From the IMG/VR virus record IMGVR_UViG_3300047469_000094: 64,000 nt of DNA. One strand, written 5' to 3'. Each line of letters starts with the position of its first letter. Position 1 is the stretch's first letter. Made by a program: the position numbers and the translations under genes. Shown here in pieces: positions 3,215-63,573 of this stretch. Origin of the DNA: a virus. Its lineage: Duplodnaviria; Heunggongvirae; Uroviricota; Caudoviricetes. Under the pieces are notes generated by a model that did not search any database, had not been told where the DNA came from, and worked only from the letters and a program-made list of their open reading frames with translations.

Positions 3215-3223
3215 GTTATACCA
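3215..3223 (-). promoter_or_regulatory. extended -10-like promoter element (minus strand TGGTATAAC, followed by conserved AATAGTGCG box)
   Basis: Member of a recurrent motif family; lies upstream (in minus sense) of the tRNA-like module array. Confidence 0.4.
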
Positions 3224-3243
3224 CTGTTTCAAGAATTATTGAA

Positions 3244-3981
3244 TCACCAACCGGTACCCACAGGCTCCGGGACAGGATCGTAGACGTACGTCCCCTCAGC
3301 AGCAATCTTCATATCGTCGATTGACCACAGAGTAAGCTTGCCGCCTTCGTAGCCGCAACCGGTATCCAAGTCATAAACGTTATGGCTGATACGAATTTCG
3401 TCATGGGCACAATGACCGCAAAACAAGTAAGCCACGCCAGTCACTGGTTTGGTAACTCTCGACGAGTACCTCCAACGACTACGATCCCAGGTTGCGTAGT
3501 TGACTACCTCTTCATGCCAATCCACGAGAGAACGAGTGAATACACCCCAGTCATCGCCTGGTACGTTTGCATGGACGATACCGACGAGCCCGTGCTTCGT
3601 TTCTACTTCGATTGCAATTGGAAGCTGTCCAATGAGCAAACGAATCTCCCGCTGAGAATCCTCCCACTCATTTACAAACCAACGACCACCGTTTTGAACT
3701 CTGTAGCCGTTCTCATGGTGCTGCAATTGGATTTGTTCGTGGTTGCCACGTACCGCAAAGAACCATGGCTCGAAGATGTAGTTCGAGAACCGAATGCTGT
3801 ACGGCCCACGATCTACGAGATCACCTACCGAAAAAAGACGATCCTTAGTTTTATCGAAGCCCACCTCTTCCAGGAGCTTTTCCAGAACGTGGAAGTAGCC
3901 GTGGATATCACCACAAGCGAAATCCCGGCCTCCGTTTTCGTTAGGCCCTACGCGTTTTACAAGTTCAACTCGCTTCATCAA
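3244..3981 (-). CDS. Ser/Thr protein phosphatase (calcineurin-like metallophosphatase, lambda-PPase-like)
   Basis: Motifs GDIHG, GDLVDRG, GNHE in 245-aa ORF. Confidence 0.85.
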   Translation of the reverse strand: MMKRVELVKRVGPNENGGRDFACGDIHGYFHVLEKLLEEVGFDKTKDRLFSVGDLVDRGPYSIRFSNYIFEPWFFAVRGNHEQIQLQHHENGYRVQNGGRWFVNEWEDSQREIRLLIGQLPIAIEVETKHGLVGIVHANVPGDDWGVFTRSLVDWHEEVVNYATWDRSRWRYSSRVTKPVTGVAYLFCGHCAHDEIRISHNVYDLDTGCGYEGGKLTLWSIDDMKIAAEGTYVYDPVPEPVGTGW

Positions 3982-4322
3982 TTAATCCTCAATGTCGGTA
4001 AACCGTAGTTTCTCAGTACACTTCTTCGGGGAGGTAGTACTTCAAGAACCTCGTGGTTCATGTGTTCGAATCTCCAGGTAGTAACCCTGTGGTTATCAGA
4101 CACCTTAGCCCAATCTGCACTGGATTCTCCTATACGGTAGATGTAAGTGTTTAACCCCCACTTCTTACCCTGCTCATACTCGTCATCGTCAGGTCTTAGT
4201 AAAAACTGGAGATGAATGATTGGCTCAGGAGAAGTCGCAGTTCCAACTACATCTCCAAGCCTTTTCAGAAAATCAGGGAGTTCAACTCTCTCCATCAGTC
4301 CACCCTTATCAATGGAAGCCAA
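3978..4322 (-). CDS. hypothetical protein
   Basis: 114-aa ORF, start overlaps upstream gene stop (operon-like). Confidence 0.5.
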   Translation of the reverse strand: MASIDKGGLMERVELPDFLKRLGDVVGTATSPEPIIHLQFLLRPDDDEYEQGKKWGLNTYIYRIGESSADWAKVSDNHRVTTWRFEHMNHEVLEVLPPRRSVLRNYGLPTLRIN

Positions 4323-4630
4323 GTCCTTGGAAAGACCCCGTTTCTTGGCTCCGGGTCATTTACCGGAACTATGTCCAAAACAAAGTAATTGGTATCACTA
4401 AGCGACCAGTCGTCCATGGTTCCAGACGGGATATTGTCACTGCCCACATACTTATAGCGTACCTCCGTGCGGTGATCCTCGACATCTATGTGGTAAATAG
4501 CGATCCGACTGTTGTACCCGCCACCGCCTTCTACTTGGAACTCCAAGTAGCAAATAGGAAACCCGTCTTTAGCCTGTACCCGTTCAGAAAGCCCCTCTAA
4601 GAAGCTCTTAACTGAAATGTCCATTATCAC
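4295..4630 (-). CDS. hypothetical protein
   Basis: 111-aa ORF in minus-strand operon. Confidence 0.5.
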   Translation of the reverse strand: MIMDISVKSFLEGLSERVQAKDGFPICYLEFQVEGGGGYNSRIAIYHIDVEDHRTEVRYKYVGSDNIPSGTMDDWSLSDTNYFVLDIVPVNDPEPRNGVFPRTWLPLIRVD

Positions 4631-4640
4631 CCCTAAAAGA

Positions 4641-4662
4641 AAAAGGCCCGGTTAAGGGCCTT
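4641..4662 (-). terminator. rho-independent terminator hairpin (GGCCC-GGTTAA-GGGCC) with T-rich tails on both strands
   Basis: GC hairpin followed by TTTTC on minus strand, directly after stop of gene 4676..4948. Confidence 0.5.
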
Positions 4663-4675
4663 TGTTCCGAATCAC

Positions 4676-61206: not shown

Positions 61207-61476
61207 TTACGATGAAAAGAAAATGTACGACGAGTACAACGCATTCCCTAGAAATGCCATTATGAGGTAGAACCTGAAATCATTGTCCACTCTATCTACG
61301 TCGAACAGAAGAGAACCGTCTTCGCAGATAGAGAGGGCGATCAAAAAGGCATATGCAGTACAGATTCCGTAAGTCATCCCATGATGGCGGGCCATGATTA
61401 ATGCGGGGACTAGCAAAAAGAATCGCGTTGAAATGTTGTACGTCACACCTTTTATAACATCCAACGTAGACATCAC
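61207..61476 (-). CDS. hypothetical membrane protein
   Basis: 89-aa ORF, hydrophobic. Confidence 0.45.
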   Translation of the reverse strand: MMSTLDVIKGVTYNISTRFFLLVPALIMARHHGMTYGICTAYAFLIALSICEDGSLLFDVDRVDNDFRFYLIMAFLGNALYSSYIFFSS

Positions 61477-63080
61477 TTCTCCTTAATAGAATCCAACATC
61501 CACCTAGGGAACTTCGACTTATTCTTACGGATGAACTTAGGGAAACGATCATCCATCAGAACGGTTACTCCGAAGTCTTTTTCACTGCGGTTGATACGAC
61601 CCGTCTGCTGACCGAATGTGATCATTGCTTGATAGTTATACCAGGGAAAGTCCTTTTTCATCTTCATGCTGATGAACTCGTCCCCGGCGTTCATGTACGG
61701 AATACGAAGGATTACCTGGAATCTAGCACGGTCGAACTTGAAGTCCACCCCTTCCTGACACGTCGGTGAAACATAGACCGCGTTGTCTGTCCGAGCATAG
61801 AACTCTGCAAGCCTCTGTGCCGAGTCCTCAGGCGAGTGAGTCATCAGTCTTGGGTCACGCATGGCTTGCATGAGATCGAAGGCTGCACGATACGAGGGAG
61901 CGTGGATGAGGCCTTTAACGTCAGAGAAGATGGCCATGACAGCCTTGAGCTTCTCAACCAGTTCAGGAAGGTTATCAACCCAACCTTTGTGACTGGTATC
62001 GACCATGTACTGCGGCTTCATGATGATCGGACGACTCTCTACCGGGAACGTAGAACCGATGCGGATGAAGTACGTAGTTTCCGGATTGATGCCCCGATCA
62101 CGGCAGAACATGTTCTTGTCGTAGATCGTACCGGACATAATGACGTTGATCTCACCACCGTCGTACAGAAGCTTCTGTGGAAGACCACCCAATTTCTCAG
62201 GCGTCAGCTCGAACTTGGTAGCTCCGAGGTTCCCATACTCTTCTGCCTGGACCGAGAAGTTGCTCCACATCTGAGGGAAATCATTCGTCATGGTCTCCAG
62301 CTTCATGATGCGGTCTGCGTACTTCTTCTGCTCTTCTTCGTCTTTCGGAACGAAGCGGTCTTCAGTGAAGTAGCTCAGCCAATCACTGATATCCTCGAAG
62401 TTCTCCCACCTTGCACGTTCTTGGTCGGAGCCCAGCATACCCGGGACAGTAACCGAGAACTTAGCGAAGTCACGAAGGATACCTTCGATGCGGTGACCTT
62501 CGTCAATGATCATCATCTTGCGTTGACCGAACCGACCACCGAAGTGAGTCTGGTAGATGTACGAATGCAAGTTATGAATGATGATATCGTTATTGGAAGC
62601 AGTCTCGATTGCCACGGTGTACGGGCAAGGAGTAGTCTCAGTCTCGCCATCGAAGCCTGTGCATTTCTCGTAGTTCTCCTTGGAGTCTTTGCACGGACCT
62701 TGGCCGCAGTTACGAGTAGTACGCTCAACGTGGATCAACTCACCCTTGGCGATGGTCTGGCGAATAGCCTTGGCATCAGCAGGGGTTTCGTAGAACACGC
62801 ATGGGTAAGACGACCGGCCTTTCATTAGGACTGCGTACATGTTGAAGTCATCGTGATACTGGTTCTGCAACGACTTCATAGGGGTAAGGATGTGAGCGGA
62901 CTTCGACCACCGTGCGAGGGCTAAAGCAATGCCTGATTTACCAGAACCAACAGGAGCCTCGATCAGGATAGTTTTGTATCCAGCCTTGATCGCAGCTTCT
63001 GCTTCATTGATTACGGAGACCTGTCCACCGCGAGGTGAATCCAACGGCGGTGAAGGGAAGTAACTGAGAATGTCTGACAC
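61473..63080 (-). CDS. DinG/Rad3 (XPD)-family Fe-S helicase
   Basis: Walker A APVGSGKS, DEAH-type IDEGHR, four-Cys cluster between motifs I and II (C..C..C..C). Confidence 0.8.
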   Translation of the reverse strand: MSDILSYFPSPPLDSPRGGQVSVINEAEAAIKAGYKTILIEAPVGSGKSGIALALARWSKSAHILTPMKSLQNQYHDDFNMYAVLMKGRSSYPCVFYETPADAKAIRQTIAKGELIHVERTTRNCGQGPCKDSKENYEKCTGFDGETETTPCPYTVAIETASNNDIIIHNLHSYIYQTHFGGRFGQRKMMIIDEGHRIEGILRDFAKFSVTVPGMLGSDQERARWENFEDISDWLSYFTEDRFVPKDEEEQKKYADRIMKLETMTNDFPQMWSNFSVQAEEYGNLGATKFELTPEKLGGLPQKLLYDGGEINVIMSGTIYDKNMFCRDRGINPETTYFIRIGSTFPVESRPIIMKPQYMVDTSHKGWVDNLPELVEKLKAVMAIFSDVKGLIHAPSYRAAFDLMQAMRDPRLMTHSPEDSAQRLAEFYARTDNAVYVSPTCQEGVDFKFDRARFQVILRIPYMNAGDEFISMKMKKDFPWYNYQAMITFGQQTGRINRSEKDFGVTVLMDDRFPKFIRKNKSKFPRWMLDSIKEK

Positions 63081-63258
63081 TCTGTGCTCCTTTTCTCAGG
63101 TGGACTAAAGCTGAAGCCCCGCTTTTGGCGAGGCTGGAGCAGTGTTTGTTTAGTACAGTCCAGACGTGCATTAATTCTGCACCAATCTACCTTTATTGTT
63201 CAAAGGTCAAAGGTCTGAGTTGTACTGGGTATTGCGAGGAGGAGATAGTATGCATCTC

Positions 63259-63267
63259 CTACGTAGT
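63259..63267 (-). promoter_or_regulatory. extended -10-like promoter element (minus strand TGGTATAAG)
   Basis: Upstream of helicase operon start (63080). Confidence 0.35.
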
Positions 63268-63286
63268 TCTTATACCAAAACTACGC

Positions 63287-63505
63287 CTAGTGAATGACCT
63301 CCCACGACTCGGCAGTGAAGTCTTCCACTTTGACGTGGACCTCACGACCCTGAATCGGGGACAGCTCAAGAAGAGAATCGTTGCGACCCATAACCCAAAA
63401 AGACTGGCCAGTGTTCTTGTTCTTTACTACCTTAGCTTTCATGCCAATACTTTGAACAACGGTATGCTTTACACCGTTGGAGCTAACTACATTGAGTCCC
63501 ATCAA
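63287..63505 (-). CDS. hypothetical small protein
   Basis: 72-aa ORF. Confidence 0.45.
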   Translation of the reverse strand: MMGLNVVSSNGVKHTVVQSIGMKAKVVKNKNTGQSFWVMGRNDSLLELSPIQGREVHVKVEDFTAESWEVIH

Positions 63506-63564
63506 TCACCTATAAGTCACAGAAAGAAAGGCCCAGTTTCCCGGGCGTTTTAGTCTTCACATTA

Positions 63565-63573
63565 CTTATACCA
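63565..63573 (-). promoter_or_regulatory. extended -10-like promoter element (minus strand TGGTATAAG)
   Basis: Immediately upstream of 63287..63505. Confidence 0.35.

Follow-up and report, generated by a model that had tools for sequence, protein, structure and literature searches.

A conserved minus-strand promoter-like motif, probably read by a phage sigma factor, in a relative of Salmonella phage Arash

The window, a 64,000-nucleotide stretch of a Caudoviricetes genome (IMG/VR record IMGVR_UViG_3300047469_000094), comes from a relative of Salmonella phage Arash, from a little-studied phage group. Members of this Arash-like group encode a bacterial-type RNA polymerase (beta, beta'-N and beta'-C) and two sigma70-family factors. 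In Arash, gp206 is a fusion of beta and beta'-N that carries an ADYDGDA motif in the alignment, which we read as the counterpart of the bacterial catalytic motif NADFDGD; gp216 is beta'-C, and the sigma factors are gp10 and gp196. A 99%-identical contig that extends the window encodes beta (1118 aa, E = 2e-67 to bacterial beta), beta'-N and beta'-C. The window itself holds a sigma70-family gene (58584..59351, plus strand) with regions 1.2, 2 and 4, the ortholog of Arash gp196. A gp10-type gene was not found for the window's own phage in the searched contigs, which are incomplete.

The minus strand carries the recurrent motif described in an earlier note on this DNA, and the counts confirm it: all 23 occurrences of GGTATAA in the window are on the minus strand, and GTATAA has 23 minus-strand and 2 plus-strand copies. 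With G or C as the next base, GGTATAA(G/C) is present in 21 copies, minus only, for an expectation of 2.5, while the strict form TGGTATAA(G/C) has 14 copies in the whole window, again minus only, versus 0.70 expected, a count reached in 0 of 100 shuffles. The claim of more than 20 copies therefore holds when the leading T is dropped (21-23) and fails for the strict form (14). Most positions reported for the copies were exact or at most 1 nt off (3215, 8163, 13378, 21265, 24373, 28661, 41663, 46504, 50374, 50624, 58306, 60179 and 63565; 43836, 50061 and 51008 are in fact 43837, 50060 and 51009, and 34009 is 34010, where the copy ends in A, TGGTATAAA), and two were off by 10 (37579 for 37569, 63259 for 63269). 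Copies at 1984, 18038, 61635 and 29808 had been missed, as had a variant, TTGGTAAAAG at 55332, which was recovered only by a weight matrix.

The full motif, [TTCAAT]-18 bp-TATAA(G/C) with T-G-G immediately 5' of TATAA, is longer than previously described. Across 254 unique pooled sites of the family, T-15 is present in 71%, G-14 in 100%, G-13 in 91% and the TATAA bases in 98-100%, and position -7 is G in 86% and C in 11%. Five variable bases then precede a T (91% at -1) and a purine (99% at +1, G being commoner than A); this purine is likely the start site of transcription, preceded by a 6-nt, A-rich discriminator ending in T-1. The upstream box, TTCAAT(AA), resembles a -35 element and is optional: a match of at least 5/6 is found at 44% of the pooled sites versus about 2% at control offsets, with a spacing that peaks at 18 bp (range 17-19). 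The motif had been said to have no obvious -35 element, which describes many copies in the window, where 5 of 22 sites have such a match, and overlooks the box 18 bp upstream that the pooled sites reveal.

Placement follows the genes. In most copies the predicted start lies 16-57 nt 5' of a ribosome-binding site and start codon, and in one it lies 8 nt 5' of a tRNA. Nineteen of 24 copies are non-coding (binomial p = 3e-10, taking a non-coding share of about 19% of the window from a rough gene call), and a terminator hairpin stands immediately 5' of five copies. The exclusively intergenic location that had been proposed comes close to this: three copies (63565, 50060 and 21265) overlap the TAA stop codon of the upstream gene, and another two fall within a gene or where two genes meet (61635, in the helicase gene, and 29808).

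Following the minus strand in its own direction (all copies below are on that strand), TTGGTATAAGTAATGTG (63558..63573) is preceded at 17 bp by a -35-like TTCATT and supplies, with its TAA, the stop codon of gene 63566-63952; it is followed by a hairpin with a T-run (63546-63531) and gene 63287-63502. Upstream of the helicase gene (61473-63080) lies TTGGTATAAGAACTACG (63262..63277), with a leader hairpin GGAGAT..ATCTCC, and within the helicase ORF lies CTGGTATAACTATCAAG (61628..61643), which lacks the T-1/G+1 signature and is probably a chance occurrence or a weak internal promoter. AGGTATAAGAGTAGTG (60172..60187) has TTCAAT 19 bp upstream and a hairpin with a T-run (60165-60152) just past the predicted start, the next gene being a DksA-like ORF (59753-59962). 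The copy TGGTATAACAGTAGTG at 58299..58314, which has C at -7, is 16 nt 5' of a small ORF (58113-58283, MLEK...), the ortholog of Arash gp195c, and the variant TGGTAAAAGAGTAGTA (55325..55340), seen by the weight matrix only, is 20 nt 5' of ORF 55072-55305.

A run of closely spaced copies follows. TGGTATAAGTAAAGTA (51002..51017) comes after a terminator (51080-51059) and 32 nt 5' of ORF 50680-50970; TGGTATAAGGAATGTA (50617..50632) directly follows another terminator (50675-50653) and is 36 nt 5' of ORF 50375-50581. The TAA of GGGTATAAGTAAGGTA at 50367..50382 is the stop codon of that ORF, 31 nt 5' of ORF 50061-50336, whose own stop codon is the TAA of the GGGTATAAGTAAGGTA copy at 50053..50068, 47 nt 5' of ORF 49806-50006. 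Further along, TGGTATAAGCAAAGTG (46497..46512) lies upstream of ORF 46117-46440 with a leader hairpin and T-run (46486-46464), TGGTATAAGGTAAGTA (43830..43845) is 16 nt 5' of ORF 43491-43814, and TGGTATAAGGCATTTG (41656..41671) has TGCAAT 18 bp upstream and is 36 nt 5' of ORF 41459-41620. TGGTATAACAATGATG (37562..37577; C at -7) is 32 nt 5' of a UDG/3'-5' exonuclease gene (36172-37530), and TGGTATAAACAAAGTG (34003..34018; A at -7) comes right after a terminator hairpin, 25 nt 5' of ORF 33544-33978.

AGGTATAAATGAGTAT (29801..29816), where ORFs 29805-30065 and 29545-29808 meet, is doubtful as a promoter. GGGTATAAGGGGAGTA (28654..28669) comes after a terminator hairpin and 30 nt 5' of ORF 28307-28624. 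The second TGGTATAACAGTAGTG copy, at 24366..24381, belongs to the 16-nt subclass; a hairpin with a T-run (24366-24346) begins at its predicted transcription start, and ORF 24073-24315 starts 51 nt downstream. The TAA of TGGTATAAGGACTGTG (21258..21273) is the stop codon of a Tad3-like gene (21266-21829), and the tRNA (21189-21250) is 8 nt downstream. CGGTATAAGGGCATGG (18031..18046) lies within the 3' end of ORF 17993-18280, 35 nt 5' of ORF 17646-17996, and TGGTATAAGCAAGATA (13371..13386) is 18 nt 5' of ORF 12637-13353. The 16-nt subclass copy AGGTATAACAGTAGTG (8156..8171) has a perfect TTCAAT 18 bp upstream and is followed by a strong leader hairpin, a small hydrophobic ORF and an SPFH/Band-7 gene (7128-7982). 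With a perfect TTCAATAA 17 bp upstream, TGGTATAACAATAGTG (3208..3223) is predicted to drive the 1.2-kb ORF-poor stretch downstream of it, which holds tRNA-like and Y-RNA-like (YrlA-like) elements. The last copy, GGGTATAAGAGTAGTA (1977..1992), comes after a terminator hairpin and 31 nt 5' of ORF 1737-1946.

The 16-nt subclass had been proposed at 8163, 24373 and 58306 as a distinct regulatory class, recognised for example by the sigma factor at 58584. The 16-mer GGTATAACAGTAGTGC is indeed exact at 8155, 24365 and 58298, with one mismatch at 3207. These copies are alike only within a core of 16-18 nt and so do not stem from a duplicated segment. They share the architecture of the main class (spacing, T-1/G+1), often have the best -35 box, and differ only by C at -7; we found no specific link to the sigma at 58584 and regard them as the same promoter. 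At the orthologs of the promoter next to the sigma gene, the boxes are conserved and the spacers are not; several lineages keep this C there, and a functional nuance of the C class is thus possible.

Other promoter-like elements are present. Upstream of the sigma gene, a plus-strand sequence (58529..58557) resembles the sigma70 consensus, TTGACA-17-TAACTT, with T at -7. Six lineages conserve a similar promoter specifically 5' of their 58584-type sigma gene, with -35 TTGAC(A/T) (TTGAAT in one lineage), a TAnnnT-type -10 and a spacing of 17 bp in four lineages and 18 and 15 bp in the others. In this phage family, the structural/late genes on the plus strand have a promoter class with a different motif, TAAAAT, a canonical TAnnnT without a -35 box; the element at 13405..13410 (plus strand), back-to-back with the copy at 13371..13386, lies about 25 nt 5' of the ribosome-binding site GAGGTG and precedes the ATG (13442) of a PhoH/SNF2 gene cluster.

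On the same strand, the motif recurs in Arash (36 copies minus, 1 plus), in Vibrio phage D69 (27 and 4) and in about 40 metagenomic relatives. Among 44 IMG/VR loci that bear the RNA polymerase (GC 39-55%, polymerase identity 51-94%), it lies almost solely on the strand opposite the polymerase gene, with at least one copy in 38 of the 44, and it is almost absent from unrelated control loci. High-scoring plus-strand copies in relatives sit 5' of plus-strand genes, which argues that the motif follows gene orientation.

The motif's anatomy, position, strand logic and family-wide conservation are regular throughout, and from them we infer promoter function and the start site. In our reading the TGGTATAAG motif very probably serves as promoter for the non-structural (early/middle) genes of the phage, which agrees with its earlier description as a promoter-type TG-extended -10 with a TATAA core, co-oriented with genes and 5' of transcription units. 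A strand-specific signal of some other kind (RNA processing, translational or stop-codon context, nicking or packaging, or a dispersed repeat) is highly improbable. Several copies do overlap stop codons, but a TTCAAT box at a fixed distance of 18 bp and a T/purine 7 nt downstream are properties of a promoter and not of an RNA signal; the copies come after terminators and before ribosome-binding sites and track gene orientation on the other strand, and, being alike only in the 16-18 nt core, are not a mobile repeat. As for what reads the promoter, host sigma70, as proposed earlier, is decidedly unlikely, with or without a phage factor to remodel its polymerase. TG at -15/-14 and TATAA agree with the sigma70 -10 consensus at 5/6 positions, and TTCAAT has TT..A. 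in common with TTGACA at a near-canonical spacing. In T4 and T5, early promoters recognised by host sigma70 are specific to the phage family and strongly conserved, so conservation alone is compatible with the host enzyme. The exception is position -7, where T is found at 0/23 sites in the window and 1/39 in Arash (1/62 unbiased GGTATAA sites overall, about 90% of which have G or C), and this makes host sigma70 an unlikely reader and suggests a phage sigma. Of the -10 bases recognised by sigma70, T-7 is among the two that are best conserved and essential to the mechanism (PMC4598750), and it flips into a sigma2 pocket (PMC4598750, PMC10979975). TATAAT is also nearly missing from the window (2 plus, 1 minus), and sigma70-consensus sites are not enriched in it (15 found vs 22 expected). 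Moreover, phages that infect Salmonella, Vibrio and unknown hosts share the motif, and all of them have their own polymerase and sigmas; a distinct, truly sigma70-like promoter class also stands at the sigma gene.

A phage sigma of either type is thus probably the reader, and the choice between the two is the least certain part of our explanation. Residues Y430, W433/W434 and Q437 read T-12/A-11 of a TATAA-type -10, and canonical sigma regions 2.4 and 3.0 recognise TG together with TATAA. In a comparison of 6-7 sequences per sigma family, with our own mapping to E. coli numbering, the 58584 type keeps the canonical (T/S)Y(A/G)G(W/F)W..QR, with equivalents of all these residues, has W/Q and Q at the positions of the extended -10 readers H455 and E458, and has a 4.2 recognition helix in which no residue is invariant. 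The gp10 orthologs (about 40% identical) have a C-terminal recognition helix with an invariant N..NY...KL..KV, and a non-canonical region 2.4 (KLSTHVxN) in which the canonical tyrosine, the W-dyad and the Q437 equivalent are lost. On the TG/TATAA-reading residues alone, the 58584 sigma would fit better than gp10. It would be made first by the host polymerase from its own sigma70-like promoter and would then recruit the core polymerase, of host or phage, to every minus-strand operon, similar to phage phiEco32 or to the way T7 passes from early to late genes. The conservation of that promoter in six lineages suits immediate-early host expression, and regions 1.2 and 4 match the discriminator and -35 elements; in Arash, a low-scoring plus-strand copy of the motif directly 5' of gp9-gp10 would agree with a cascade in which gp196 leads to gp10 and gp10 to the late genes, the motif preceding gp10 expression. 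We nevertheless consider this reader rather unlikely. Its recognition helix is unconserved although the TTCAAT box is common to those lineages, and the H455/E458 equivalents differ. In D69 its gene lies on the minus strand among the motif-served genes, though after a terminator and perhaps with its own promoter. In the examined parts of the Arash virion proteome table, gp206 ranks top by spectrum count and gp216 and gp10 are also detected, while gp196 is not among the proteins (PMC10585845); with the 58584 type as reader, the packaged enzyme would be left without obvious early targets. That proteome comprises 116 proteins, including obvious non-structural enzymes, and its authors allow for carry-over (PMC10585845), so the packaging of gp10 is no proof of an early role.

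We therefore favour, tentatively, the gp10-type sigma over the 58584 sigma. A phage-encoded factor, not unmodified host sigma70, would read the motif, and its most likely identity is the divergent gp10-type sigma; Arash packages this protein into its virions along with the phage polymerase. The 58584 sigma, with its canonical -10-reading residues and unconserved -35-reading helix, may instead act on the plus-strand late genes through their TAAAAT promoters, which have no -35 box. If the gp10-type sigma is the reader, minus-strand transcription would not depend on the host from injection onwards.

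The recurrent minus-strand motif described in the earlier note is real, with counts far over the shuffled expectation and on one strand only. We found 14 copies of TGGTATAA(G/C), all on the minus strand, where dinucleotide-preserving shuffles of the window gave 0.70, and 21 copies of GGTATAA(G/C), again minus-strand only, against 2.5 expected. The shorter GGTATAA has 23 minus-strand copies and no plus-strand copy, and a weight-matrix scan gained a single extra copy, the TTGGTAAAAG variant at 55332-55339. Among the coordinates listed earlier, 17 were correct within 1 nt and two were off by 10 (37579, truly 37569, and 63259, truly 63269); the copies at 1984, 18038, 29808, 55332, and 61635 had been missed.

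A 7.6-kb piece of the window gave no nucleotide match to phage genomes, and relatives surfaced at the protein level only: Salmonella phage Arash and the Vibrio phages D69, D148, and D181. The nearest cultured relative is Arash (OQ632216, "Arashvirus"), with ~42% amino-acid identity in the sigma factor and the DNA polymerase. Arash has no nucleotide similarity to the window but resembles it in gene content and local order around the sigma, helicase, primase, and DNA-polymerase genes, and carries the identical motif, with the same consensus, on the identical strand. GGTATAA is found there 39 times on the minus strand and once on the plus strand; the weight matrix gives 36 and 1 matches in Arash and 27 and 4 in D69. 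Across 44 polymerase-bearing IMG/VR loci, we counted 222 minus and 6 plus matches, "minus" being the strand opposite the polymerase gene, and at least one match is present in 38 of the 44 (GC 39-55%, polymerase identity 51-94%). Nine unrelated control loci gave 7 minus and 1 plus. The rare high-scoring plus-strand copies stand before plus-strand genes with ribosome-binding sites, and the motif therefore follows gene orientation. Our literature search found no publication on the motif or on promoters of Arash-like phages, and the Arash paper describes no promoter analysis (PMC10585845).

When the copies were aligned and numbered from 0 at the leading G of GGTATAA, the motif extended further than had been described, giving a window consensus of c-T-G-G-T-A-T-A-A-G-t-A-a-n-G-T-G-t-A. 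Downstream of the core, position 13 is a T (83% in the window), and position 14, where we placed the predicted start, is a purine. If TATAAG is numbered -12 to -7, the T and the first G of GGTATAA take the extended -10 position (-15/-14) and the conserved T/purine pair becomes -1/+1. This anatomy was described from a pool of 254 unique sites, drawn from the window together with its relatives. They have the layout of a -10 hexamer with T-12, A-11, and a predicted purine start 7 +/- 1 nt downstream: TATAA is kept in 98-100% of sites, and T (91%) and a purine (99%) stand 6 and 7 nt past the hexamer. The extended -10 TG at -15/-14 is represented by G-14 in 100% and T-15 in 71% of the pooled sites, the T being present in 14 of the 21 window GGTATAA(G/C) copies, and position -13 is a conserved G. 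Position -7 is G in 86% of pooled sites, C in 11%, and T in <1%. A -35-like TTCAAT(AA) box lies 18 bp (mode; range 17-19) upstream of TATAAG; with upstream hexamers sought at a fixed 16-19-bp spacing, TTCAAT is matched at 5/6 positions or better in 44% of the 254 sites, against ~2% at control offsets. Just 5 of 22 window sites reach this level (63572, 60186, 41670, 8170, and 3222), so the earlier description of the motif as having no obvious -35 was understandable but incomplete.

The predicted starts of most copies lie 16-57 nt 5' of a ribosome-binding site and the start codon of a minus-strand ORF, and one copy stands 8 nt upstream of a tRNA (21189-21250, Rfam match). Although non-coding DNA makes up ~19% of the window by a rough gene call, it holds 19 of 24 copies (p = 3e-10). 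The stop codon of the upstream gene is the TAA of the motif in three copies, and terminator-like hairpins directly precede those at 51016, 50631, 34017, 28668, and 1991. Neither the copy within the helicase gene (61642) nor the one at the junction of two genes (29815) has the downstream signature, and both are probably non-functional.

Terminator-like hairpins with T-runs were also seen 0-12 nt past the predicted starts of four copies (63546-63531, 60165-60152, 46486-46464, and 24366-24346, all minus strand). Because they begin just past these starts, the order here is stop codon, promoter, terminator, next gene, and transcripts from the four predicted starts would reach the terminator within ~35 nt. 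Such an early hairpin could serve attenuation or antitermination control, or could be a 5' stabilizing hairpin. It belongs to a subset of sites only; as a part of the motif itself a 5' hairpin was rejected, with +1 to +40 fold energies of the 254 sites not below those of coding controls (mean -5.2 vs. -6.3 kcal/mol).

Two stretches beside promoter copies are poor in genes. We detected no convincing ORF on either strand in ~1 kb (37600-38640) on the upstream side of the UDG/exonuclease gene with its promoter copy, and a similarly gene-poor stretch (~98.6-100.2 kb) adjoins the orthologous gene in Arash; the window stretch may serve as a replication origin or encode non-coding RNA. The other, at 1991-3222, contains at 2535-3023 (minus strand) weak tRNA matches and two matches to the bacterial Y-RNA-like YrlA below its gathering score of 69, at 2910-3012 (-; 45 bits, E = 1.5e-8) and 2621-2726 (-; 36 bits, E = 7.7e-6). 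These elements sit 3' of the strong promoter copy 3222 and have the permuted order typical for YrlA (T-arm, acceptor-like stem, D-arm). No Ro60/Rsr (TROVE) gene was present among the window proteins scanned, and no Y-RNA-like elements were found downstream of similar AATAGTGC promoters in Arash and in the family locus L058.

A 16-nt subclass had been proposed to form a distinct regulatory class; its copies have C at -7. Its 16-mer, GGTATAACAGTAGTGC, is matched perfectly at 8155, 24365, and 58298, and with a single mismatch at 3207. The GGTATAAC(A/G)... copies have the general architecture of the main class, which points instead to a strength or timing variant of the same promoter. Two of them, 8170 and 3222, carry the best TTCAAT boxes of the window, and the AATAGTGC version was found again elsewhere in the same phage and in a relative (family loci L058, 1520, and L060, 1930). 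C at -7 is kept in several lineages at the promoter beside the sigma gene. We rejected the subclass as a duplicated segment, as the similarity ended at the core when five copies were aligned with 250 nt downstream, and as a promoter class for non-coding RNAs only, as three of four copies are near an ORF when small ORFs are allowed; the only copy predicted to drive a non-coding stretch is 3222. The orthologous promoter next to the sigma gene, which serves a small MLEK... ORF (gp195c in Arash), has kept its boxes in at least three lineages while the spacers diverged. An ATG (ATGGAGAAATC...) is exactly at the predicted start of this C-at-(-7) promoter in Arash (120571; L001 ~40571) and in the orthologs of L024, L026, L028, L029, L030, L057, and L066, which suggests a leaderless mRNA for the gp195c-type ORF in these phages. 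In the window ortholog, the ATG is 16 nt downstream of the predicted start.

Plus-strand genes, which in Arash are structural, polymerase, and late genes, carry a different, promoter-like element family-wide: TAAAAT(A), 26-40 nt 5' of the start codon, with neither a -35 box nor TG. Among plus-strand genes with a gap on their 5' side, 46% are preceded by it, vs. 3.5% of minus-strand genes. For example, the PhoH/SNF2 cluster of the window is preceded by TAAAAT at 13405-13410 (+), then by the ribosome-binding site GAGGTG and the ATG at 13442. In its wider form, yTAAAAT(a), the element is present at this site, in Arash, in D69, and in another 14 loci of the family (in L058, for instance, ahead of 7942 and 19745), and in divergent gaps it is often back-to-back with the TATAAG motif (cttataccCTAAAATA). 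A conserved motif copy was sought ahead of gp9-gp10, gp10 being the divergent sigma type of Arash; Arash has a weak copy there, and D69 has a TAAAATA element instead.

The predicted promoter of the sigma70-family gene at 58584-59351 (+) is of the sigma70 type with T at -7 in most of the lineages listed here: TTGACA-17-TAACTT in the window, TTGACT-17-TACTAT in two Arash-like lineages, TTGACT-17-TACACT in L076/L077, TTGAAT-18-TAAGTT in L068, and TTGACA-15-TATACA in L069. Sigma70-consensus sites are not enriched in the window (15 vs. 22.2 expected from shuffling), nor did a second sigma70-type count show enrichment (5 vs. 3.4 shuffled). Within 58529-58590, an opposing element, TAGACA-17-TG-n-TATACT (58590-58562), adjoins the -10 region of the sigma-gene promoter and faces the small minus-strand gene 58319-58519. 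The predicted starts of the two elements, of which the plus-strand one is kept in six lineages, cross by ~10 nt, and this could make both promoters mutually exclusive. In one lineage (L013, 10001-10986, and also L076, L077, and L078), the 58584-type sigma ortholog is split by a ~221-nt insertion that separates the ...IVSLP and IWKQQL... codons precisely where regions 2.4 and 3.0 meet and shifts the frame; it looks like a small self-splicing intron.

The other genes of the window include a split family-A DNA polymerase, a primase, helicases, NAD-salvage genes, tRNAs, and a Tad3-like anti-Thoeris gene. The Tad3-like Thoeris inhibitor is encoded at 21266-21829 (-; Pfam PF25185, E = 6e-31), and the NAD-salvage genes at 9761-11560 and 11571-12410 (-) correspond to a nicotinate/nicotinamide phosphoribosyltransferase and a PRPP synthetase-like protein. 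Together, these genes suggest counter-defense against NAD-depleting systems.

The Arash virion proteome is reported to include beta (gp206, top by spectrum count), beta' (gp216), and the sigma gp10, and gp196, the second Arash sigma and ortholog of the 58584 sigma, is absent from the portion of its table examined (PMC10585845). The gp206 protein is a fusion of beta and beta'-N; we take its ADYDGDA motif to match the bacterial NADFDGD catalytic motif. The gp216 protein is beta'-C, and these genes are also present in D69. From ~56.5 kb onward, the window is overlapped by an IMG/VR contig with 99% identity to it, which encodes, ~21-35 kb beyond the window end, beta (1118 aa), beta'-N (383 aa), and beta'-C (606 aa), its beta aligning end to end with bacterial beta (E = 2e-67). 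The phage of the window therefore has its own bacterial-type polymerase. A contig search outward from the window end returned RNR, dCMP deaminase, and similar genes, not polymerase. Unlike the single 1525-aa beta/beta'-N fusion of Arash (L002, 93-4670) and D69, the window's lineage has two overlapping ORFs (L058, 9983-13339, 1118 aa, and 13336-14487, 383 aa), which would reflect a genuine split, a programmed frameshift, or a sequencing frameshift. Adjoining the sigma gene is a DksA-like zinc-finger protein of 69 aa (59753-59962, -; PHROG 54, E = 1e-6), which may bind the polymerase secondary channel.

The motif had been taken for a host sigma70-dependent promoter, and it does share with extended -10 sigma70 promoters (TGnTATAAT; bacteria, T4/T5 early) the TG at -15/-14, T-12, A-11, T-10, A-9, and A-8, a dispensable -35-type box ~17-18 bp upstream, and a pyrimidine at -1 and purine at +1, 7 nt past the hexamer, where the start of the motif is predicted. 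It differs from them in the conserved G at -13, in TTCAAT instead of a TTGACA-like box, in G/C instead of the near-invariant T at -7, and in belonging to a clade that encodes polymerase and sigmas itself. In sigma70 promoters, the two bases that flip into sigma pockets, T-7 and A-11, are also the best conserved (PMC4598750, PMC10979975). Among GGTATAA sites, chosen irrespective of the following base, -7 is G in 15, C in 6, A in 2, and T in 0 of the 23 in the window, and T in 1/39 in Arash, G/C amounting to ~90%. Host sigma70 is an unlikely reader, because strong phage promoters read by it would have no reason to exclude T. The -7 base, the co-occurrence of phage sigmas and polymerase, and the residue patterns of the sigmas indirectly support dependence on a phage sigma.

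As to which of the two phage sigmas would be involved, the evidence is indirect and points both ways. In the 58584-type sigma, the canonical TYAGWW..QR of region 2.3-2.4 is preserved, and W/Q and Q stand where H455 and E458 align; its region 4.2 recognition helix has zero invariant residues over seven lineages that all share the TTCAAT box. The gp10-type sigma is full-length yet divergent, with a non-canonical region 2.4 (KLSTHVxN) and a C-terminal recognition helix, N..NY...KL..KV, that is invariant in six lineages ~40% identical. The presence of gp10 with the polymerase in the Arash virion preparation, these residue patterns, the late TAAAAT element (canonical TAnnnT without a -35), which matches what the 58584 sigma appears built to read, and the minus-strand position of the D69 58584-type gene, amid motif-served genes, favor an order in which gp10 acts first. 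Injected polymerase with gp10 would read the TATAAG promoters of early/middle genes, the 58584 sigma would read the TAAAAT promoters of late genes, and the sigma70-like promoter at the sigma gene would allow host-driven or self-driven sigma expression. The reverse assignment of the two sigmas is a serious rival, because canonical sigma residues read TG plus TATAA. Keeping to the gp10-first order, we tentatively propose, as a reading that may well prove wrong, that this clade (~170-190 kb) runs a sigma cascade on its own polymerase, with a virion gp10 holoenzyme at TTCAAT-18-TGGTATAAG and the 58584 sigma switching it to TAAAAT. The virion-delivered holoenzyme (beta, beta'-N, beta'-C, and the divergent gp10) would start host-independent transcription, G at -7 being read by a re-specified sigma pocket, and the second, canonical-looking sigma would move the enzyme to the -35-less late promoters. 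As with all functional statements made here, we infer these steps from sequence.

A promoter read by a phage sigma is an already known kind of element. In the phiEco32 gp36, SPO1 gp28 and gp33/34, and T4 gp55 systems, a sigma70-family phage protein redirects transcription to a phage-specific consensus, and time-segregated classes would be shared as well, with TATAAG here marking the early/middle strand and TAAAAT the late one. Their consensus sequences differ from the motif, and those sigmas use host core, whereas here the phage also encodes a bacterial-type beta and beta', virion-reported in Arash. The T4 gp55 late promoter has TATAAATA at -10 and no -35 box; the motif, with TATAA(G/C), TGG upstream, and a -35-like box, is unlike it, and the plus-strand TAAAAT(A) comes nearer. 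T4 middle promoters use a MotA box (TGCTT) near -30 together with the MotA and AsiA proteins, and the upstream box of the motif is TTCAAT instead of TGCTT. The jumbo phages phiKZ and AR9/PBS2 also have a beta/beta'-type phage polymerase reported in the virion and separate early and late promoter classes. Their enzymes are highly diverged, split in 4-5 pieces, and without a canonical sigma, and their promoters are not of the -35/-10 type (PMC7598289, PMC9209446). By contrast, the present clade pairs a full-length bacterial-type beta, and beta', with two sigma70-family proteins and two strand-segregated consensuses, the motif having a -35/-10 layout. New with respect to known phage-sigma promoters are the G at -7, the TTCAAT box, and the pairing with a bacterial-type polymerase and two sigmas.

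These sites, 24 in the window and >250 among relatives, make a testable promoter code available. They allow three questions to be addressed: how a sigma could favor G over the T that is otherwise near-universal at -7, whether the virion packages a sigma-dependent holoenzyme, and how phage promoters are insulated from the host enzyme. The motif aids transcription-unit annotation in Arash-like phages, one of which has been proposed for Salmonella biocontrol, and may yield orthogonal promoter/sigma pairs for synthetic biology. If the proposed cascade is true, it would be, as far as we found, the first case of a phage-encoded multisubunit polymerase that depends on a sigma and has a defined promoter code, in a clade that would span Salmonella, Vibrio, and many uncultured hosts.
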